Positions 11,394-37,109 of a stretch of 64,000 nucleotides of DNA are shown piece after piece. The first letter of the stretch is position 1, and each line of letters starts with the position of its first letter. Both the position numbers and the translations under genes were made by a program. Source of the stretch: a virus. Lineage: Duplodnaviria; Heunggongvirae; Uroviricota; Caudoviricetes. The DNA is taken from the IMG/VR virus record IMGVR_UViG_2791355477_000007. One strand, written 5' to 3'. Below the pieces are notes generated by a model, which saw only the letters and a program-made list of their open reading frames with translations, had not been told where the DNA came from and searched no databases.

Positions 11394-11840
11394 ATGGATA
11401 GATATAATGTATTGAGATTTTGCATTCCTATTATGGGCGGGCTTATGTTTCCACTTGTGGTGTTTTTTGATAATCCAATAATATCTTTGGGAATTATCAT
11501 GGGTATTCTATTAATTAGTTTTGCGTTCCATTTGGTTTTGAAAATCCATAAAATCAAGTACGAAGATTTGGAAAGAGCTGAAAAGTGTATTTGTTATGAG
11601 CTTGGTTTCCTTATGCTTGATAAAGAAGGATTCTCTATATCAGTGATAAATAGAGAAACTAAACTTAATGTAATCACTTTACTAAAGAGATGTTTTTTCA
11701 GTTCCTGTGAAAACTACAGTGTTTACACATCTATGGGAGAAGTGAAGGTAAGTGTTATGATTTACGATGAGATTGCTTTTATTGATGAAATGGATTTTAT
11801 ATCAAATGTTAATTATGAAGAACTTTTAAACGTAAGTTAG
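11394..11840 (+). CDS. small membrane protein, paralog family (type B, divergent)
   Basis: ATG 11394 with RBS AAGGAAG; ...LLKRCFFSSCENYSVYTSMGEVKVSV...ISNVNYEELL. Confidence 0.5.
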   Translation: MDRYNVLRFCIPIMGGLMFPLVVFFDNPIISLGIIMGILLISFAFHLVLKIHKIKYEDLERAEKCICYELGFLMLDKEGFSISVINRETKLNVITLLKRCFFSSCENYSVYTSMGEVKVSVMIYDEIAFIDEMDFISNVNYEELLNVS

Positions 11841-12821: not shown

Positions 12822-13217
12822 GTGTTAGAAATGAAACTGCAAAAACCACTTAAAACAGTTAAAGTATGTATTCTATTATTAACTTGTTCATCTTTTTTGT
12901 TCGGTTGTGAGCATACAGTTAGAACAGAAGAAAATGTGATAGGACAAGTAGTAGATAGACAAATAGAAAAAGTGAAAATTGAAGGCGACTGCACTCAGAT
13001 TCCGATTGGGGATACTGGTGTTTTTATGCCAATTTGTGATGATGATAAAGAAGAAGAGCATTTTAATGTAACAGTTCAAGCCCATGGAATTACTACAATT
13101 CTTAATGATAAATCAATGTTTGAGAGCAAAGAGAAAGAACTTCCTGTTATTTATATAAAAGAAGTAGGGGAAGAATCAAACAAAGTCTATGATGAGCGGT
13201 TAATATTACCTTATTAA
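12822..13217 (+). CDS. putative lipoprotein
   Basis: signal peptide with lipobox LFGC (…CSSFLFGCEH); start abuts previous stop. Confidence 0.55.
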   Translation: MLEMKLQKPLKTVKVCILLLTCSSFLFGCEHTVRTEENVIGQVVDRQIEKVKIEGDCTQIPIGDTGVFMPICDDDKEEEHFNVTVQAHGITTILNDKSMFESKEKELPVIYIKEVGEESNKVYDERLILPY

Positions 13218-13392: not shown

Positions 13393-14763
13393 TTATACCT
13401 GAATTGGTACATCAATTTTAGCTCTTGCTACGCAAACCCCTTGTTTAACTATATAACATTCAACAAAGTGTTCACCGTTAAAAGATGTACATTCTTTAAG
13501 TGTTTCTGAATTGGTTTTAATAATTTGTCCTCTTACACAGTTTCTTTCTTTCGCTACATCCCCACGGTTTTTAACTTTCCAATACACATGATATGGTTTT
13601 GTAACGTAATTGTCTTTTATATAAAAATCCAATTGTTTGCTGATTGGTAAATGCAGACCTCTTTCTAACCAATCATTTAAAAAATAAGGTCGAAAACCAT
13701 CCTGTGTAATGCGACAGTCTAAAGATAAGTGGTACTGAATATTTACAGGGAACATATATTCAATAAATTCCTCAGACTCGTTGTATAGTCTACTCTCTGT
13801 AGAAGCATAAGATTTGCTTACAGCCGAATTTGTTTCTTTTTCTTGTTCTAATTGTTTTTCCCAATATTCATGATTAAAGAACTCTTGCCATGCTTTAATT
13901 GCTTGTTCGGGTGTACAACCTTCCTCAAACAAAACTTCCAACTTTCCTAAATAAGTTGTTAATCTTCTTTCTAATCTGTCCAACCGAACATCATCTTTTT
14001 GAATTAATTTAAGGCTTTGCTCTTCATCAGTGGGGTTATTTACCTCTTTATCTATGGTCAATCTATCTCTTACTGCAACTAATGTATGATAAAACATTTC
14101 ATCTATGCGTGTTTCAGCTTGAAAACATTCGTTGAGAAGTACGGATTGAACTAAACCACCAGGCATTTCCCATTTAGGTCTGGATTTACAAAACATTTTC
14201 AACAGTCTTGCTACAATACGAAGGTTATAATTCTTCTTTTTATTTTCATTATTAAACCACTTGGTAATACTTCTTGGGTCTCTTGGCCGCCATTCGCTTC
14301 CGCAATGTTCGTATTTATATTCACCATATTCGTCTTTATATCTTCGATAAATAGCAAAATCAATGTGATAGCCCTCTTCATAAACAATTCGTACACAGTT
14401 TGTTTTTGCTGTAGGTGGTTCTTTAAATTGTTTACATTTCTTTTTCAGTGCGGTTACTACCATATTCTTTGTTGCGGTTGTTCCTTCAGGTAAGTTGTCC
14501 TTATCAAAAATGATAGCAACATCAATATCGTAATCTTTACTTTCATTTTGCACAACTGTAGACATAGCTACGCTTCCCTGAACAACGGTATCTACAATTG
14601 AATAATTTGTTTTCTTTTCCTCGTTGTATTCTTTTAATCCATCTTTTAATCTATCAAGATTCGATGTTCTAAGCTTAAATAATCGATTTTTTTCTTTACC
14701 TTGTAACACAACATGTTTTTTGTAAAACGTCATAAGCTTGTTATTTAAGTCGTACATAAGCAT
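13393..14763 (-). CDS. CBASS cGAS/DncV-like nucleotidyltransferase (CD-NTase)
   Basis: pol-beta NTase signature QGSVAMSTVVQNESKDYDIDVAII (GS...DxD) and downstream HIDFAIY third acidic residue; 456 aa; co-oriented and 6 nt from a multi-TM effector-like gene. Confidence 0.7.
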   Translation of the reverse strand: MLMYDLNNKLMTFYKKHVVLQGKEKNRLFKLRTSNLDRLKDGLKEYNEEKKTNYSIVDTVVQGSVAMSTVVQNESKDYDIDVAIIFDKDNLPEGTTATKNMVVTALKKKCKQFKEPPTAKTNCVRIVYEEGYHIDFAIYRRYKDEYGEYKYEHCGSEWRPRDPRSITKWFNNENKKKNYNLRIVARLLKMFCKSRPKWEMPGGLVQSVLLNECFQAETRIDEMFYHTLVAVRDRLTIDKEVNNPTDEEQSLKLIQKDDVRLDRLERRLTTYLGKLEVLFEEGCTPEQAIKAWQEFFNHEYWEKQLEQEKETNSAVSKSYASTESRLYNESEEFIEYMFPVNIQYHLSLDCRITQDGFRPYFLNDWLERGLHLPISKQLDFYIKDNYVTKPYHVYWKVKNRGDVAKERNCVRGQIIKTNSETLKECTSFNGEHFVECYIVKQGVCVARAKIDVPIQV

Positions 14764-14769
14764 CCTCCA

Positions 14770-15861
14770 TTAAGCTTGAATGTATTTACCTTTCTCGTCA
14801 CCGTTAAGAACAATGCCCCAAGGATATTTTTTTGGGGTATGCATATCAAAGAAGTAGCAGATAACTTGTGCCATTCTATAATTTTCAATTCTTTTTCCTA
14901 TTTCTAATGCTAAACAACTTTGACTGGAACAAACCAAATGAACTTTTGTTGCTCCAATTTCTTCAATCGTATCCATGATAGTTTTTACATAATCTTTAAG
15001 TTGATTTGTATAGCGTATTTTATTATCATCTGGTGTATCTACTGCCAGTTTCACAACATCTACGCCTTCAAACTGAGTTAATTGAGCATCCTTAATTTCT
15101 TTTGTGACAGAAATAGATAATACCACTTCTATTGCATTTGGATTTAAATGATTCAAATCTGTTTTAACCTCTAAAGCAGAGTATCCATTACCTTCTTTTA
15201 ACTCGTAGAATTTTTCAGTTTCTATTTTGTCGAACTCGAAATAATGGTCTATTTTTTCTCTTTGTAAATACGTTCCTGCTAATGCTACAAACGGGATAGG
15301 AGCGATACCTGTGTAACCTCTTTTAAACTCTTTACTTTCATCTTTAAAGGAAGTTATTTTTTCTTTCAGCATATTAGCGATATCTTTTGTAGTAGTAGGA
15401 TTTATACCTTTTTTATAGGTTTGAATGAAATCAATTTCTCTTTCTTTGAATTCAAATGTTCCTAAACCTAAATCACGATTATGTCCTTCAATTCTTTTAT
15501 CAAAATAACCGTTGATGTTTAAAATGAATATTCTATTTTTAATATATCTCCAGAAGTAAATTCCTGCTACGAATAATAGTGCACCGACAATAAGTTGAAG
15601 AACATTAGGTTCGGACATTTCTTTTGTAATAGCGATGGATTCTTTCGCTGTTTCGCTATTTTTTAAGATTGATAGGGTTTGGAGTGGTTTGTCCCAGGGA
15701 GAACCAAAAGCACTGACAACTAAAGAAAGACCCGTTGTAATTAACAAGGAGGATAAGCTTTGTTCTTTATTTTGGCTTGAAAACTGTTTGATTACAAACA
15801 AACCTCCAATACCAATAATAGCAATAACTAAAATGATAATAAAAATAGCCAATATTTTCAC
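14770..15861 (-). CDS. CBASS effector candidate: 3-TM N-terminus + ~250-aa C-terminal sensor-like domain (TM-SAVED-like?)
   Basis: three N-terminal hydrophobic helices then soluble domain; operonic with CD-NTase; SAVED assignment is inference from architecture only. Confidence 0.5.
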   Translation of the reverse strand: MKILAIFIIILVIAIIGIGGLFVIKQFSSQNKEQSLSSLLITTGLSLVVSAFGSPWDKPLQTLSILKNSETAKESIAITKEMSEPNVLQLIVGALLFVAGIYFWRYIKNRIFILNINGYFDKRIEGHNRDLGLGTFEFKEREIDFIQTYKKGINPTTTKDIANMLKEKITSFKDESKEFKRGYTGIAPIPFVALAGTYLQREKIDHYFEFDKIETEKFYELKEGNGYSALEVKTDLNHLNPNAIEVVLSISVTKEIKDAQLTQFEGVDVVKLAVDTPDDNKIRYTNQLKDYVKTIMDTIEEIGATKVHLVCSSQSCLALEIGKRIENYRMAQVICYFFDMHTPKKYPWGIVLNGDEKGKYIQA

Positions 15862-16126
15862 GCTCCTTAACCGTATTTGAATAGGAAATAAAAACCGTCA
15901 TCTTCTTATCATAAGGAGAATTGACTATATTTTGCAATTGTTTAACCTCTAAAAATTAAAATAAAAGGATATAATATAGTTTTTTTTAATAGAAGACGAA
16001 CTATGAAGGGAAATATGTATGCTGACAGAGATTTTATTGAATGAATGAAGTATTGGAATAGTATAATCATAGGAATATAAAAAAACAGGTATTTAAATAA
16101 ATTTAATGTAAAAGGGGCTATTTAAA

Positions 16127-16897
16127 ATGAATTTAGATGGAATGAAAGAATTAATTAAACAAAGTGCAATGAAAAGAAAACAAATGTTTACAGAATTGAA
16201 GGAACCTTGGGAAGTTGTTACGTTGTATTACGGAACAACAAGTAAAAAATTGAATGATATTTTACAACATGGAATTACTCCTCAAAATGGTGTACCTTCA
16301 CATCCTGAGTTGGTTTATTTAACAACAAAATGGCATTATTGGTACGCTTTCCAGGAAAATAAAAAATCATTAATTGCAACTGTAGGAAAAGAACGATATG
16401 AATCAGAGTCTATTACTTCTCTTTGGAATGAAACAGGTGACTTTCCAATTTATATTTCTTTAGAAGTGCCAAAAGAAATATTGGTATTAGATGAAAATGT
16501 GGTTCATCAATTAGATATTAAAGAGAAAATTCAAAATGGCGATATTGAAAGCCCAGATGATATTTCGTTAGAGGATTGTTTAGAACATGGCATGGTAGCT
16601 TCGATTGATACGATTAAACCTTGGTATATAGATGAGGTTAACATTATTGGTAGTGAAGAATATAGGGATGATTTGTTAGATGGAGCATATGGAGAAGAAG
16701 CGAATCTTTGGTTTAAAGGATTTGGGATTGGCTCAATAACTGCTGATTCATTAAATTTATATGAGCAAGTAGCTTATGGTAATTTAGTGAAAGTTGTGGT
16801 GTTTTCTCCAATTATTGAAGATAATCCTAAAATAAAAAGTATTTATATTAAAGACGAGAAATTACAAATTGACTTTGATTGGAATTGGTTTAAGTGA
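16127..16897 (+). CDS. hypothetical protein with Tpt1/KptA-like HGT NAD-binding motif (ART-fold candidate); paralog of 17071..17850
   Basis: LYYGTTSKKLNDILQHGITPQNG...ELVYLTT resembles KptA [29 protein letters not shown]; ~60% identical to next gene. Confidence 0.4.
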   Translation: MNLDGMKELIKQSAMKRKQMFTELKEPWEVVTLYYGTTSKKLNDILQHGITPQNGVPSHPELVYLTTKWHYWYAFQENKKSLIATVGKERYESESITSLWNETGDFPIYISLEVPKEILVLDENVVHQLDIKEKIQNGDIESPDDISLEDCLEHGMVASIDTIKPWYIDEVNIIGSEEYRDDLLDGAYGEEANLWFKGFGIGSITADSLNLYEQVAYGNLVKVVVFSPIIEDNPKIKSIYIKDEKLQIDFDWNWFK

Positions 16898-17070
16898 ATT
16901 AGCATAATAAATGCATAAATAAAAATAAAACTACCTAATTAATTTGATAATAGGTAGTTTTATTTTGTGTAATTATGATTAGAATGAAGAATATAGATGA
17001 TGTAGTATAATGTTATAAACATAACAAAACAGGTATTTTTAAAAATGCGATATAAAAGGAGCTATTTATA

Positions 17071-17850
17071 ATGAATTTAGAAGAAATGAAAGAACGAATC
17101 AAACAAAATGCGGTAAAAAAGAAACAGTCATTTACCGAAGTAGAAGAGCCCTGGGACACGATTACTCTATATCACGGAACGACAACTAAAAGATTAAATG
17201 AGATTTTAAAACATGGAATTACATCTCGAAATCAAAATGAAATAAATAATTTTACTCATGTGCCTTCAAATCCTGAGTTGGTGTATTTATCAATAAAATG
17301 GCATTATTGGTACGCTTTTCATGCGAACAAGGAGTCACTCATTAATCAAGTAGGGAAAGAACGTTACGAATCTGAATCTATCACTTCACTTTGGAACGAG
17401 ACTGGAGATTTTCCAGTTTATATTGTTTGTGAAGTACCTAAAGAATTATTGGTACTGGATGAAGATGTAGTCTATCAGTGGGGGATTAAAACGAAAATTA
17501 AGAATGGAGAAATAGAAGGACCAGATGATATCTCAATAGAAGAATGCTTACAACAAGGAACAATCGCTTCACTTGATACGATTATTCCTTTATATATGAA
17601 TGAGATTATTATTATTGGTAGTGAAGAATATAGAGAAGAACTATTAGGTGGGATGTATGGTGTAGAGGCAGGAAAATGGTTCCATGGATTTGGAATTGGT
17701 TCTCTTACTGCTGATTCATTAAGCGTACATGAAATCATGAAGTATAGTAAATTTCTTCATATACTGCCTGTTGAACCTATTCCAGAGCAAAATAAGTCTA
17801 TTAAACGGATTTATATTGAAGAGGAAGAATTACAGGTTGAATTTGAATGA
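17071..17850 (+). CDS. hypothetical protein with Tpt1/KptA-like HGT motif; paralog of 16127..16897
   Basis: LYHGTTTKRLNEILKHGITSRN...ELVYLSI; own AAACAGGTATTT box and RBS. Confidence 0.4.
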   Translation: MNLEEMKERIKQNAVKKKQSFTEVEEPWDTITLYHGTTTKRLNEILKHGITSRNQNEINNFTHVPSNPELVYLSIKWHYWYAFHANKESLINQVGKERYESESITSLWNETGDFPVYIVCEVPKELLVLDEDVVYQWGIKTKIKNGEIEGPDDISIEECLQQGTIASLDTIIPLYMNEIIIIGSEEYREELLGGMYGVEAGKWFHGFGIGSLTADSLSVHEIMKYSKFLHILPVEPIPEQNKSIKRIYIEEEELQVEFE

Positions 17851-18056
17851 TAGAGAATCTGAATTAGGTATCCTTTCACAAGGTTCTACGATATAATAAA
17901 TATATATCTGTTCTATATTTTTTGTGGAGCATCCATCATTATTTGATGGGTGTTTTTTTATAAGCTCGAACCATTTTGGTCTATCTATATAGATGAAATA
18001 TGGATAAAATGAAATTGTAGAGCTAACAACCTTTTATAAAAAGAATATTAATAGGG

Positions 18057-18725
18057 GTAAGTGTTATTAAATTTAGGTATCATCATACTCTAATTATATA
18101 TGAACTTCATGTTATTAGAACATGTTTGCAAATTCGTCAAACAGAAGTTAATTACTTATAAAGAACTAATTGTTATTAAAAGTAGGGAGTCTTGTCTTTA
18201 TCTATTATATAAAACTATATGTTATTAAAAGAACGGTTCTTTCTTAATTAATTTATATTGAACTATATGTTGTTAAAAGAATAATAAATTGAGGAGAAAG
18301 ATTTGGATGAATATTAGGCAGTTAAAAGAAAAAGAAGTTACAATGAATGCTTTGAATGGATTTGCTAATCGGACTAAAAAAGCAATAAAGCATTTGAAAA
18401 AGGAAAATGCCCCAAATTTAGTTGTGGAGACTCTTGTAGACCAAATAGAGATTGCAAAGAGATTAGCAGGAGAATTAAAAAATGAAATCTCAGAAGACAT
18501 CAAAGAAAGAGCACTCCAGAGAATTAATTACGGTGATATAACTGAAGTGAAGTTTGTTCCAGAAAATTAAAGTGTTTGAAAAATATAAAGAACTCAATGT
18601 TATTGAAACCTGCCATTTAAATGGAAGTAGTAGTTGGTAATTTATCGTTCGAACTATTTGTTATTAGCATTATAAGGACGCCTTTATTTAGCAAAAACTT
18701 ATAAAAAACTATATGTTATCTATTA
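18057..18725 (+). repeat. array A of degenerate 19-bp repeats (rAACTwwwTGTTATTrrAA), 8 units, interrupted by a small ORF
   Basis: units at ~18057,18102,18162,18211,18260,18589,18651,18706; spacing 45-62 bp; preceded by AAGCTCGAACCATTTTGGTCTATCTATATA at 17963. Confidence 0.7.
18305..18570 (+). CDS. hypothetical small protein embedded in repeat array A
   Basis: RBS GAGGAG 8 nt before ATG 18305; helical, Lys/Glu-rich. Confidence 0.35.
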
Positions 18726-18943
18726 TTTATTATGAACAATGGCTATTGTAGTCATTGTTTTTATTTTGTTTTTTATTCTCTTATGTATCCGATATAACTT
18801 GCTTATAATATATAGATTTAATGAAAAAGGAGTGATAATTTCACAATGTAAAAAAGTTATGTTTTTAAAAAGGATTTTTATTGTTCTGTATCAATTATAT
18901 GTATGTAGTTGATTTGCTTTTTATTTTAAAGAGGTGATATTGT

Positions 18944-19726
18944 ATGGTTACAGGAATTGGTATTTTTACAGGGTTATTTAAAGTTGGTAGTTTTATAGCA
19001 AAGTTTAAATGGATTGTTCCGATATGTTTCTTAGTATATTCATTGTATTTGAGTTGGTTTAAGACATCAGTTTATGAAGAATTAACTCATAATTTGCGAA
19101 AAACTTGGTATTTTTTATTGATTTTTGCGATGGGAATTCATTTTAATGCGGTAGGTTTTAATGCAAAAGATTGGCAGGACTATCTATTGTATGTTTCTAT
19201 TTTTGTATTTGTAGATTTGGCAATTTTTCAAACACCACGAATATCAAAAATATGGGGAACCGAATTAACAGCCATTGAGAAAAATAATAAAGATTTAACG
19301 AAAACGATTGAGATGGGCAAAGCAAGAGACGCAAATTTCTCAGCAGTAATTAGAAGTATGAATCCTAATTACTTTAAGCAGGTGGATATGAATACTTCAG
19401 CTAAATACTTGAATTCTTTAGGTAGCATTATGAATTTGTATGCTAATTTATGCGATTATAAAATTGATGTTTATCAAAACAATAACCCGCAAGTATTGAT
19501 GCAACAATTAACGACTCAATATGGAATAAAGATTTCACAAGAGCAGTATGATGAGTTGAATGTTGAAAAAGGGGTGTTGCAACCAGAGACGAATATGGTA
19601 ATGGTAGCAACATCTATTGTCGAAAACATTGTAATCGTAGTAACAAGTCAAAAAAGTATAATGCTTGATAATGACATATCGAATGTATATGACCTTGCTA
19701 TTATTCATAGTTGGTTAAAAAAATAA
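18944..19726 (+). CDS. hypothetical membrane protein (260 aa)
   Basis: 4-5 N-terminal TM helices, soluble C-terminal half; RBS AGAGGTGA. Confidence 0.5.
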   Translation: MVTGIGIFTGLFKVGSFIAKFKWIVPICFLVYSLYLSWFKTSVYEELTHNLRKTWYFLLIFAMGIHFNAVGFNAKDWQDYLLYVSIFVFVDLAIFQTPRISKIWGTELTAIEKNNKDLTKTIEMGKARDANFSAVIRSMNPNYFKQVDMNTSAKYLNSLGSIMNLYANLCDYKIDVYQNNNPQVLMQQLTTQYGIKISQEQYDELNVEKGVLQPETNMVMVATSIVENIVIVVTSQKSIMLDNDISNVYDLAIIHSWLKK

Positions 19727-19767
19727 CTATATGATAGAATAATGGTAAAGGAAGTGGAGGAGATATT

Positions 19768-19947
19768 ATGAACAAAATGATGGTTATTGAAAACGAAAAA
19801 CAAATAAGAGATTCAAAAACAGAAAATATTCCCTTCTTTTTAAGCAAGGACCCAAACTGTGAGGTTGTTCAAATCCCAACGGCTTTACATACTCAACAAT
19901 TATTAACTGAAAATAAACGTTTGTTTAGCAAACTTAGAAGACGATAA
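19768..19947 (+). CDS. hypothetical small protein (59 aa, below ORF-track cutoff)
   Basis: RBS GGAGGAG; followed by hairpin AAAGCATGGttattCCATGCTTTTTT terminator 19947-19972. Confidence 0.3.
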   Translation: MNKMMVIENEKQIRDSKTENIPFFLSKDPNCEVVQIPTALHTQQLLTENKRLFSKLRRR

Positions 19948-20021
19948 AAGCATGGTTATTCCATGCTTTTTTCTTTAACATATTTTCGATTATCTAAATG
20001 AATAAAGGGAGCTGATTAAAT

Positions 20022-20315: not shown

Positions 20316-20600
20316 AAAATTAATTTATATATGATATAGAAGGTGATAGGATGGAGAAAAAGTTTAAAAGTAATCTTTTGAAGGAGAAGCCTGTGACGTA
20401 TGCACCACACCTTAAAAATTCCCCTTCAAAAACGAAAGAATTAATTGATGAGATAAAAGTTGAAATATTAAAGATGAAAAACAAATAGCAAAGGGGCTTT
20501 TACATGAGAAAAGAGCCTCTGAAAATTTGGGGGCTCGAACCGTTTTGCTATATACAAATTTATTCTATTTCTGTAATCTAAAAGAAAGATGAAATTGTAT

Positions 20601-20840
20601 AAAGCTAAATGTTATTATAAATGTCTAAGTAAATTTTATATTTAGAATGAACTTATTGTTATTAATACTATGTATAGAAACTGTTTACTTATCAATTTTC
20701 ATCGTTTAAAAACAACTAATTGTTATTGAAATATGCACGAGAGCACACTCTGATATCTCTTATGAAGAACTTATTGTTATTAGGATGTTCGTGATTCAGT
20801 TCCGTATTCAAAATTATAAAACTTAATGTTATGAACATAA
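20601..20840 (+). repeat. array B of degenerate 19-bp repeats, 5 units
   Basis: units at 20601,20649,20713,20766,20818; preceded by GGGGGCTCGAACCGTTTTGCTATATAC at 20529; last unit extends into palindrome GTTATGAACATAAC. Confidence 0.7.
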
Positions 20841-20953
20841 CTTCTTGCTAAGAGCAAGGAGTTTTCTTTTTTTTATAACCCAAACCACAAAAGTCTATAA
20901 TAAATAAATTTATAAAATAGGTATTCATTTGAATTTATTTAGGAGGATGTAAC

Positions 20954-21508
20954 GTGGAAATGGTGTCATATATTAGTCTTATTTTTATTCTAATATGCAA
21001 AGTGTTCTTTGCAAGTAAATGTATCGTGCTTATTCATGAATTAGGTCATGCATTTTTTGTTTTCATTACAGGTAATCAAATCACTGCTATTCAAATAGGA
21101 GGAGAGAAAAAACTCTTTACTATCGGTAAACTGCAATTTCTTATAGGAGCAGGAGGACGTTGTTATTTTGAAATTGCAGATGCAAATAAAAGGAAGTATT
21201 TAATGAAAAACATTATCTCTATGGGTGGTGTTTTATTTACATTCATTTTGACAATCGTTTTAGTCGGAACAGATTCTTTTGATTTTTATCATTTTGCAAA
21301 AGGGATGATAAAAGGAGATATTACTTTTATAGAGTGTTTGGTAATGTTTGGTTTCTTAGATTTAAGAAACATCATACCGAAAACGTTTATAAATAACGAG
21401 GTTGTATATCAAACAGACGGGCATAAAGTCATACAAGACACAAAGTCTTACTTCAAACAGAGAAGGATTAGAAGACTACAAAAGAATATTATGAACTTAA
21501 TAAAATGA
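20954..21508 (+). CDS. small polytopic membrane protein with HExxH (HELGH) motif, metalloprotease-like; paralog of 39461..39946
   Basis: IHELGHAFFV in first TM region; 4 TM; AGGTATTC box and AGGAGG RBS upstream. Confidence 0.45.
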   Translation: MEMVSYISLIFILICKVFFASKCIVLIHELGHAFFVFITGNQITAIQIGGEKKLFTIGKLQFLIGAGGRCYFEIADANKRKYLMKNIISMGGVLFTFILTIVLVGTDSFDFYHFAKGMIKGDITFIECLVMFGFLDLRNIIPKTFINNEVVYQTDGHKVIQDTKSYFKQRRIRRLQKNIMNLIK

Positions 21509-22765: not shown

Positions 22766-22853
22766 TTTTTAGGGGGTCGAACCGTTTATCTATATGCAAG
22801 GAGTTATTGTGGGTGTAAAATGATAAATATCAAGATGGTAAATGGCAGTTAAT

Positions 22854-23437
22854 GAAAACTTTTTGTTATTATAAGCAAGGAACTGGCAGTATTCTTGAAG
22901 TTTGTATAAGGAACTAAATGTTATTAAAAAATGAAAAGTACAATAGTAACCATATCAGCAAATAAACAATTATATAGAACTATATGTTATTGAAATAACG
23001 TTTTTCGTATCGTATGAGTACATTTTAAAGTTAAAACTTATTGTTATTAGAATTAACAACAAATGAGACGATGCCCAATGTACAAAGAACTTACTGTTAT
23101 TAAAAAGTTAAAGCATAAACGAAAGAGTTAGCCATCTTATTAGTTGTAGAACTATATGTTATTGGAATCTTATTCCTTCATCTCTTAAGATAAATTATGA
23201 ATAAACTGAGTGTTATTAAAACGTTAAAGAGTAAACGATGGAATTAGTAATGGTACTAATAGATTAACTAATTGTTATTAAGATATACTGAAACCACCCG
23301 AAAAATATATAGAACTAAGTGTTATTAGAATTCTGCATCCAAGGGCATGAATATTCTATTAAATTAAACTAATTGTTATTGAAATACGTCTCTTTTTATG
23401 CGTATGACATTTGAAGTTGAACTATATGTTATAAAAA
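22854..23437 (+). repeat. array C of degenerate 19-bp repeats, 11 units, abutting 3' end of integrase gene
   Basis: units at 22854,22910,22975,23030,23085,23148,23203,23262,23312,23365,23419; invariant AACT..TGTTAT; inter-unit sequences pairwise similar (e.g. units 5/7 and 3/10). Confidence 0.75.
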
Positions 23438-23462
23438 AGAATGAGCAGAGTGAATTCTCTGC

Positions 23463-24629
23463 TCATTTTAATTCTGCCATTAATTCATTTATATCCATCC
23501 CTAACTTATCTGCAAGTTGCTCCAGTTTAGATAATTGAATGGAATCATTACTTGTCTTTTTTTTCGTGTATTCATAATCAAACTGCTTCATGGATTCGGA
23601 GACACGTTCTTGAGAAGGGTCCGCATAAAACCTTCGAGTTGTTTCCGCAGAGCCGTGTCCGAGTACCTGTGCAGTCAAATACATATCCTGATAAGTATTG
23701 TAATGATTTGTTCCAAATGTACGTCTAAAAACATGGGGTGTTATCTTTATATCTAAACCACTACGAACTCTATATTTCTCCAACATTAAACGAACTGTTC
23801 TTTCATTCATCCGTTTTTTATGAAGGGAAACAAATAGGGCCTTTGCATCTTCTTTTTTTACATCGGTTAATTTCTTTCTCTCCACAAGATAATCTGTTAA
23901 ATCATCAAGAATCCTTCCTGGCATCGGGATAGCTTGTTCATCTCCACCCTTTCGAATGACAACAAGCATCTGCTTTTCTATATATACATCATCTATATCC
24001 AACTGAACCAATTCGGATACTCGAATACCTGTGTAAGCCATAGTTAATACCATAATGTAATCTCTAAATTTAACCTTTTTATGAAAATTTTCTTTTCTTG
24101 AGTTTTCGATATGTACATCTTCTACAATTGTTTTGAAGAATCGTTCAATATCTCCAGGACTTAATCTATTTTTAATTTTCGCTTTGGTAGGTACTTTCAT
24201 TTCTATACCTGCTGTTACATCTTTGGATAATCGCTTTTGCTTAAATAAATACCCAAAAAACTTATGTAAAGTAGCAAGTTTTCTTGATTTCCCACTGGAT
24301 GTATTCGTGAATTCTTGTGTGGTTTCTTTACCTTTTGAAGTGAAAAAGGTTTTTGAATAATGTGTTAAGTAATCCATAAAATCAATAATATCTCTATCTC
24401 GTAAAGAATCTAAATCTACTGTTGTAATATCCCTGGTATGGCTTGCTGAAACTTTGTTATCGAGCAGAAGAAAATCAAAAAATAGATTCAGGTCTTTAGC
24501 ATATTCGATACGAGTGTTTAATTCTTTTGATGTTTCTAATGAATAAATGAAGTCCACTGCACAGTCAGGAAGAGAGAGGAGCTTTTTTCGTAATTTCTCT
24601 TGACGTTTAATTTCAATATCCTTCTTCAT
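23463..24629 (-). CDS. tyrosine site-specific recombinase/integrase
   Basis: box I AYTGIRVSELVQLDIDDV; box II HVFRRTF...LGHGSAETTRRFY (R-H-R-Y catalytic residues). Confidence 0.85.
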   Translation of the reverse strand: MKKDIEIKRQEKLRKKLLSLPDCAVDFIYSLETSKELNTRIEYAKDLNLFFDFLLLDNKVSASHTRDITTVDLDSLRDRDIIDFMDYLTHYSKTFFTSKGKETTQEFTNTSSGKSRKLATLHKFFGYLFKQKRLSKDVTAGIEMKVPTKAKIKNRLSPGDIERFFKTIVEDVHIENSRKENFHKKVKFRDYIMVLTMAYTGIRVSELVQLDIDDVYIEKQMLVVIRKGGDEQAIPMPGRILDDLTDYLVERKKLTDVKKEDAKALFVSLHKKRMNERTVRLMLEKYRVRSGLDIKITPHVFRRTFGTNHYNTYQDMYLTAQVLGHGSAETTRRFYADPSQERVSESMKQFDYEYTKKKTSNDSIQLSKLEQLADKLGMDINELMAELK

Positions 24630-25239
24630 GTTTAAACCTCCTCAGGTTATAGAATGCTTCTATTTGAAACAAAACCTTTTTTTAGAATTGTAAGTCCATA
24701 AAAAATCTCTTTTCGTATTACGAAATAGTAGGGAAGAGAATCTTTTAATATCGAGTGAATAAAAATACTTAATAAATGCATTTTCTTACAGAATGTTCGG
24801 GGTTTATATTTTTAAAAGTGAATAAAAATAAATAACACCGAAGTTGATAGAAGGGAGGAGACCTCCAAAATTCACGCCATATTAAAAAGATGACGACTCT
24901 ATTTTTCTATCTCATAAAAAGATTCAAAAATAGGGAGGGCTTAATTCATACATTTCTCATGTGTAACATTTATCGTTATGTTCATAACTTTTAAAAGTTA
25001 AACATCTGAGAAAATTCTTTCCCAACACTAATATACAATAGAAGTGTGGAAAAAACAAGAACTAATGTTCGATTTATTCCGAAAAATACTATTTTCGACA
25101 TATTTTTACAATAGTTGATAATAAAAATAGAGACTCCTTTAGAATCTCTATGAAATTATTTGTGTAGATGCTCGTAGAGGAAGTAGTGTATCCATTTACG
25201 TTTTAAATGAGGTTACATATACGATTAAAAAGGGTTGTC

Positions 25240-25677: not shown

Positions 25678-25873
25678 TTGTATCTCCTTTAAAAAGAGGT
25701 TTTATATGTAAGTATTCCCAAGTTAAAAAAAATAAATTCTATCTGTTCAGAAATATAATTCCTAATATTCCCAAAATACAGATAAATATTTCTACAGTTG
25801 TAATATATTAACATTAAAGTAAATTATGTTACAGTTGATATGTAAGTTATAAAACTATCAAGGGGGAATTAGT

Positions 25874-36609: not shown

Positions 36610-36613
36610 TAAA

Positions 36614-37109
36614 TTTCAATAACAAATAAGTGTAATGTAAATATTCAAGAAAATAAGCTGTACATACGTTTTTATAACATTTAGTTTTTTATAGATGATA
36701 TCTAACAAGCCTGGTGTTTCAATAACAGGAAGTTCTTTTTATATGGTAGTAAATAATACTTTAAATTCTTTGTAATAACAAAAAAGTTTTTCAGGATGAA
36801 TCATATACTTAAATTAATAACATCATCTCTTTTAATAATAAATATTTTGTTTTTGATGTGATGGTTTTACATCTATTTAATAACATATAGTTCTCTTTAT
36901 AAATAGGTATACTATACCTTAAGCATAATTTGATAACATGTAGTTCTTTTAAAAAAAGTATTGTAGTAACTGACCCAAAATTTTAATAACAGGAAGTTCT
37001 TTTTAAAATAAAATTTGACATTATACTGAAACTTTGAAATAACATTAGTTTCGCTTTTTTAGTGATTTAGGGTTAAAATTCAAATATTTTATTCCAATAA
37101 CACCTTATC
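36614..37109 (-). repeat. array D of the same 19-bp repeat family, inverted orientation, ~11 units
   Basis: plus-strand reads TTTCAATAACAnnnAGTTC etc. at ~36614,36668,36718,36768,36812,36880,36928,36985,37037,37093. Confidence 0.7.

Follow-up and report, generated by a model that had tools for sequence, protein, structure and literature searches.

The window, which is the whole stretch of 64,000 nucleotides that was analysed, is the reverse strand of the B. thuringiensis Bt407 plasmid BTB_502p (NC_018878.1, 501,911 bp), a window position being equal to 231353 minus the record position. Array B (20529-20873) comprises, in this order, a conserved element, five repeat units, a palindrome and a terminator, and is followed by the promoter and the gene of HELGH, an M50-like membrane protein (20954-21508). 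The features of the locus are listed below; L017 and L020 are the two relatives used for comparison, whose tyrosine recombinases are 94% and 91% identical, respectively, to that of Bt407.

20490..20521, plus strand: imperfect hairpin read from the sequence, directly 3' of the stop codon of a 45-aa ORF (20351-20488)
20529..20555, plus strand: 5' end of the leader, the 27-bp element GGGGGCTCGAACCGTTTTGCTATATAC, with core GCTCGAACCGTTTTGCTATATAC and candidate promoter TGcTATATA
20556..20592, plus strand: truncated remainder of the leader, resembling in the leader alignment the GTAAA.GTAAAATAA.AG.GAAA.TG stretch of the L020 leaders
20593..20622, plus strand: unit B1, degenerate repeat AATTGTATAAAGCTAAATGTTATTATAAAT, profile score 20.0, followed by a 17-nt spacer
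20640..20669, plus strand: unit B2, ATTTAGAATGAACTTATTGTTATTAATACT, profile score 27.2, followed by a 34-nt spacer
20704..20733, plus strand: unit B3, GTTTAAAAACAACTAATTGTTATTGAAATA, profile score 27.1, followed by a 24-nt spacer
20758..20787, plus strand: unit B4, TCTTATGAAGAACTTATTGTTATTAGGATG, profile score 27.7, followed by a 22-nt spacer
20810..20839, plus strand: unit B5, terminal degenerate repeat AAAATTATAAAACTTAATGTTATGAACATA, kept in L017 and L020
20839..20873, plus strand: intrinsic terminator, an 11-pair stem (20839-20863) and a T run, kept in L017 and L020

The upstream transcription unit ends at the imperfect hairpin at 20490..20521; the terminator scan made no call at this hairpin, and a T run is absent. 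The transcription unit of array B is closed by the intrinsic terminator. All features that an earlier sequence-only reading had described for array B were found in place, including the palindrome within the last unit (GTTATGAACATAAC, 20828-20841, in B5), and the architecture that it had likened to that of array A (a hairpin, the conserved element and, about 50 bp further on, the repeats) is indeed common to both and recurs at array C. Array B precedes the HELGH promoter as had been proposed, but not immediately, as the terminator stands between the two. The 16-nt cores of the five units start at 20602, 20649, 20713, 20767 and 20819 (spacing 47, 64, 54 and 52 bp). Instead of repeating the same 19-mer, as had been claimed, the units have 13 of the 16 core positions in common, the three middle bases being variable; two of the five cores are perfect and three carry two mismatches.

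The repetition itself is real. A search of the whole window for the core GAACTNNNTGTTATTA with at most one mismatch gave 23 matches against 0.29 expected, a number reached in none of 100 shuffles, and all matches were confined to arrays A1, A2, B and C on the plus strand and array D on the minus strand. When two mismatches were allowed, the full unit family became visible, with roughly 35 units in arrays A-D:

17964..18289, plus strand: array A1, 4 units (cores 18102-18275), leader element at 17964-17993
18581..18760, plus strand: array A2, 3 units (cores 18590-18722), terminator at 18734-18760
20529..20873, plus strand: array B, 5 units (cores 20602-20834)
22770..23467, plus strand: array C, 11 units (cores 22856-23434), leader element at 22770-22797, bidirectional hairpin at 23440-23467
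36610..37061, minus strand: array D, about 9 units

Across all arrays the units are spaced 47-66 bp apart, with no helical phasing, and each has a conserved part of about 27-30 nt, tTATAaA-[G/A]AACT-NNN-TGTTATTA-aAA, the remainder being unique. Terminators were found by the terminator scan to close arrays A2, B and C. In array C, units 5-6 and 7-8 (window 23078-23302) form a diverged tandem duplication in which the first unit and its spacer are clearly alike, indicating that the arrays also grow by duplication. No match to an Rfam family was found, a search for the two-unit pattern in species-representative genomes and viral contigs returned only chance matches in coding repeats, and the literature on BTB_502p and on CRISPR in the B. 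cereus group contained nothing about these arrays. The arrays are adjoined by defence and toxin genes (window 13400-19950), among them a CBASS pair of a DncV-like nucleotidyltransferase and a SAVED-2TM effector, two paralogous genes with a weak Tpt1/KptA-like match (16127-17850), and, downstream of array A2, a SpoIISA toxin gene followed by a small ORF (18944-19947).

The leaders proved to be conserved as well. Nine leaders from three plasmids (Bt407, L017 and L020), six of them belonging to arrays of L017 and L020, could be aligned, and all start with GCTCGAACCGTTT..TATATAC; judged from this alignment, nine arrays have a leader in common, and its conserved 5' end is the 27-bp element. The sequence-only reading had this element standing before arrays A and B alike: homologous copies do precede arrays A and C, but the exact sequence occurs at array B only, where it is unique in the window at three or fewer mismatches. 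Array C is preceded by the closest copy (22770-22797), and the one at array A (17964-17993) carries an insertion of 4 nt. Within the element lies a TATATA hexamer resembling a -10 box, which is TG-extended in some copies and accompanied by a weak -35 region, and a role of the element as a promoter is plausible. The leaders of L020 are full-length, and compared with the one before the array B homologue (about 185 bp) the leader of Bt407 array B is truncated.

With a profile built from the terminus units only, the whole plasmid was scanned on both strands. The best match outside the arrays was the repeat GTATAAAGGGAACTAAGTGTTATTAGAAA of a mini-CRISPR (score 23.7, the next best sites scoring 17.8 and 17.2), and this top rank indicates that the units of array B derive from GTATAAAGGGAACTAAGTGTTATTAGAAA as degenerate copies and so are homologues of the repeat of a proven CRISPR in the same genome, an identity that the sequence-only reading had not recognised. 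Plasmid-wide, the motif was found only in the five arrays and in this one other place (record 25.7 kb). The site scoring 17.8 is a solitary repeat-like sequence, AAAGAGAAAGAACTTCCTGTTATTTATATA, which lies within an annotated coding region some 5 kb ahead of array A (window 13137-13152) and may be due to chance.

The mini-CRISPR (record 25695-25860) has two repeats of identical sequence, GTATAAAGGGAACTAAGTGTTATTAGAAA(A), a third that is degenerate, and spacers 36-37 nt long. More than 150 plasmids of the B. cereus group, most of them conjugative, match the first spacer at 100%. In pBT9727 the target is the parA-rep intergenic region, where the 36-nt protospacer has CCA just 5' of it, which we take to be a PAM of the C. 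difficile type. A spacer matching more than 150 plasmids identifies GTATAAAGGGAACTAAGTGTTATTAGAAA as a genuine CRISPR repeat, aimed at rival plasmids. This points to a Cas system on a large B. thuringiensis plasmid, with no annotated adaptation genes, that is directed against the replication region of conjugative plasmids of the pXO2/pAW63/pBT9727 type, a case of plasmid-against-plasmid warfare. Relative to this canonical repeat, the units of array B differ at no fewer than 6 of 30 positions; AACT and TGTTATTRAAA are kept, while the 5' third and the three middle bases are free. No stable fold of the repeat RNA was found.

BTB_502p encodes the cognate machinery at record 435-445 kb, about 230 kb from the arrays: Cas6 (PF01881), Cas7/DevR and Cas3 with helicase and HD domains, together with gene products of 460 aa at the Cas8 position and 237 aa at the Cas5 position, for which there was no family match. 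No cas1, cas2 or cas4 gene is annotated on the plasmid. The family to which this Cas6 belongs is rare, comprising six clusters that all fall within this plasmid lineage, and one relative assembly carries both the cas locus and the array-linked recombinase. Between cas3 and a methyltransferase gene (record 442856-442945, minus strand) there are two repeat-like units at a distance of 60 nt, the second overlapping the ribosome-binding site of the methyltransferase gene; this repeat-spacer-repeat pair is similar to degenerate mini-CRISPRs of the CreA/CreR type and is kept in a relative (L029:2135-2235), and for its spacer-like stretch no convincing target was found, and none on the plasmid. BTB_502p also bears many housekeeping-like genes (gyrase subunits, DnaE, primase, SSB, LigA, RecG, RecJ, SecA and ClpX), a copy of rplU-prp-rpmA-spo0B-obgE, a sigma factor, ParM and type IV secretion genes, and long runs of small co-directional genes with no known function.

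The diverged plasmids L017 and L020 keep arrays at the same places with differing numbers of units; for array B the count is 5 in Bt407, 3 in L017 and 10 in L020, the core being retained. In L020 the array B homologue opens with two identical 29-nt repeats, GTTTATACAGAACTTAGTGTTATTTAAAT, and spacers of 36-37 nt, and with growing distance from the leader its repeats become degenerate and its spacers shorten, whereas array B of Bt407 contains degenerate units only. The cores are better conserved than the spacers, with identities of 95.7% versus 80.9% for L017 and 88.6% versus 67.4% for L020, figures that are possibly inflated, as the aligner may pair non-orthologous units.

For the spacers of arrays A-D and of the relatives' arrays, no match was found in phage or plasmid records or in BTB_502p itself. 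Self-targeting was rejected, since the longest self-matches on the plasmid (mean 12.5 nt) were no better than those of shuffled controls (12.3 nt). The array B spacers are unique but far from uniform (17, 34, 24 and 22 nt, compared with 36-37 nt in intact arrays), and its units are not the near-identical repeats of 23-50 nt of an ordinary array. Neither units that are alike at only about 60-80% nor spacers of short and uneven length (17-36 nt over all arrays) fit a working CRISPR, and array C has grown on at least one occasion by tandem duplication of two units instead of acquiring spacers.

We therefore consider it likely that array B is a degenerate CRISPR array of a type I-B-like system residing on the same megaplasmid. 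It is a worn-down CRISPR with leader and terminator rather than a new class of element, and one of five degenerate arrays around the replication terminus of BTB_502p; with the plasmid having Cas genes of its own, array B is a version of something known. What is shown directly in its support is that units and leaders are homologous, that the reference repeat is authentic, that cas genes are present and that the core is conserved more strongly than the spacers. Against it stand, besides the dissimilar units, the lack of spacer matches and the growth of array C by duplication, the distance of about 230 kb to the cas genes, the lack of a stable fold in the repeat RNA and the missing family matches for the products at the Cas8 and Cas5 positions. 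Each unit of about 29-30 nt would descend from the plasmid CRISPR repeat GTATAAAGGGAACTAAGTGTTATTAGAAA, and the stretches between the units would be old spacers shortened through decay. The 27-bp element, as the start of the leader, probably holds the promoter of array B, so that transcription would begin in the leader and end at the terminator at 20839-20873. The plasmid Cas6 may recognise the AACT...TGTTATTRAAA part of every unit and, if processing follows that of other type I repeats, its cut would leave an 8-nt AUURAAAN 5' tag. As the conserved core is kept while everything else drifts, we infer that array B is still transcribed and recognised by Cas6; processing of the transcript and present-day activity are likewise inferred. 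Normal interference by the array B crRNAs has presumably been lost, given spacers of 17-34 nt with no known match, and array B is probably a relic of immunity that has stopped growing in a system lacking annotated adaptation genes. CRISPR arrays can, then, decay until a core of about 13 nt survives per repeat, and with so little left in each repeat, standard repeat-based finders are expected to miss such arrays.

Conservation of the core among relatives whose spacers drift raises the question of whether decayed arrays still serve as decoys or regulators. According to this explanation, the roughly 35 degenerate units would be CRISPR-derived but re-purposed RNA arrays, maintained with selection on the Cas6/Cascade-binding core only, and acting either as decoys for the Cas6/Cascade of type I-B systems, in the manner of RNA anti-CRISPRs, or as short regulatory guides with which Cascade represses genes without cutting, in the manner of CreA/CreR; their placement around the replication terminus and the dif-like site might then matter in itself. 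We regard it as unlikely, even though the core is conserved by position despite free spacers and changing copy number, the spacers are short, adaptation genes are not annotated and a conserved repeat-spacer-repeat lies inside the cas locus of Bt407 and a relative. Spacer matches to the plasmid at the level of shuffled sequences argue against it; since the plasmid's own system is based on this repeat as well, a decoy would inhibit that system too, and the gradient from intact to decayed units in L020 is the ordinary one.

The position of the arrays on the plasmid bears on a further explanation. The cumulative GC skew of BTB_502p has its maximum at record 200-208 kb and its minimum near 455-460 kb, where the plasmid origin is located. 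With the skew maximum lying among them, the arrays surround the replication terminus, where genes and replication forks converge. At this point the plasmid encodes a tyrosine recombinase (window 23463-24629, minus strand) that matches XerD in every catalytic residue (R, K, H-x-x-R, H and Y). It has homologues with 44-63% identity, several of which are carried by plasmids or contigs of 0.22-0.89 Mb in Brevibacillus, Paenibacillus, Aneurinibacillus, Exiguobacterium and C. perfringens. The gene of this recombinase has upstream of it the palindrome CGAAAATAGTATTTTTCG (window 25080-25097), which is conserved across genera as CGAAAAT-N4-ATTTTCG and occurs likewise upstream of the homologous recombinases in Brevibacillus and Paenibacillus megaplasmids. 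This palindrome is probably the dif-like site of the recombinase, and the two together (window 23463-25100) probably form a dedicated dimer-resolution module of the dif/Xer type at the plasmid terminus. A second motif, the 14-bp palindrome GTTATGAAGATAAC with its variants, was found 13 times in 148 kb against 1.6 expected, at window positions 11836, 17012, 20828, 24975, 51812 and 56475 and elsewhere on the plasmid. Its copies usually lie 15-25 nt upstream of a ribosome-binding site and are co-oriented with the gene, making the motif a candidate operator or RNA hairpin; array B ends in one of these copies, and a further one is located upstream of the recombinase.

Given this setting, the units could be double-stranded DNA sites bound by a protein, either as operator arrays or as polar replication-fork barriers at the terminus. 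The arrays are all located no further than about 15 kb from the skew maximum, toward which they are directed from either side (A-C on the plus strand, D on the minus strand), they flank the Xer-like recombinase and its conserved dif-like site, and the core holds the quasi-palindrome AAC-N5-GTT. We nevertheless judge this explanation to be very improbable: the homology of the units with a genuine CRISPR repeat and their leaders of the CRISPR type speak against it, the 47-66 bp spacing shows no helical phasing, no candidate binding protein was found, and the orientation is equally well explained by co-orientation with transcription. Moreover, CGAAAATAGTATTTTTCG is unrelated to the array motif and megaplasmids of other genera carry the same recombinase with no arrays, showing that the arrays are not recombinase sites; accessory sites of the recombinase were rejected in view of the Brevibacillus and Paenibacillus megaplasmids. 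A Ter-like replication-fork trap, which had been prompted by the terminus position, was demoted once the CRISPR homology appeared. Iterons or a replication origin were discarded because the spacing is unphased and the locus lies at the skew maximum, with the origin near 455-460 kb. A sigma-A promoter in each unit was also rejected, as the hexamer spacing is unfit and the promoter scan gave fewer sites than shuffled sequences.

A type III toxin-antitoxin system, in which array B would supply the antitoxin RNA and the M50-like gene the toxin, is extremely improbable: the order of promoter-like element, repeats, terminator and gene fits ToxIN-type loci, but antitoxin repeats there are identical and contiguous and are followed by a toxin gene of the ToxN/AbiQ type, whereas unique spacers separate the units here, the downstream genes encode an M50-like protease or, for array A2, the SpoIISA toxin, and array C has no downstream gene.

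Among known systems, the degenerate mini-CRISPRs CreA and CreR (of the Haloarcula type I-B system and others) and the RNA anti-CRISPRs, which are solitary repeat units, are built of one or two repeats with a partial target that is defined. The arrays of BTB_502p resemble them in that repeat-like sequences keep only what Cas proteins need, and a pair of such sequences is present at the cas locus too; unlike them, array B has five units and arrays A-D about 35, with no target found. The SPBRE repeats of SPbeta, which are bound by the recombinase-like repressor MrpR (PMC10516654), are similar in being a dispersed intergenic element of 15-16 bp adjoining a gene of the tyrosine-recombinase fold. 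This analogy was rejected, since the XerD-like recombinase of BTB_502p keeps its catalytic residues (R, K, H-x-x-R, H and Y), unlike MrpR, and its conserved site, a dif-like palindrome, is not the array motif, the units being homologues of a CRISPR repeat. From the type I-B arrays of Firmicutes, array B differs in that every unit is degenerate, the spacers of 17-34 nt are uneven and gave no protospacers, cas1, cas2 and cas4 are not annotated and the distance to the cas genes is about 230 kb. With these arrays it shares an AT-rich, unstructured repeat of 29-30 nt, homologous leaders before several arrays, degenerate distal repeats, and Cas6, Cas7 and Cas3 on the same replicon. The C. difficile type I-B repeat GTTTTAGATTAACTATATGGAATGTAAAT has the AACTATATG core and the ...AAAT 3' end in common with the BTB_502p repeat, and, as in C. 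difficile, the mini-array of BTB_502p has a 36-nt spacer and a target preceded by CCA.
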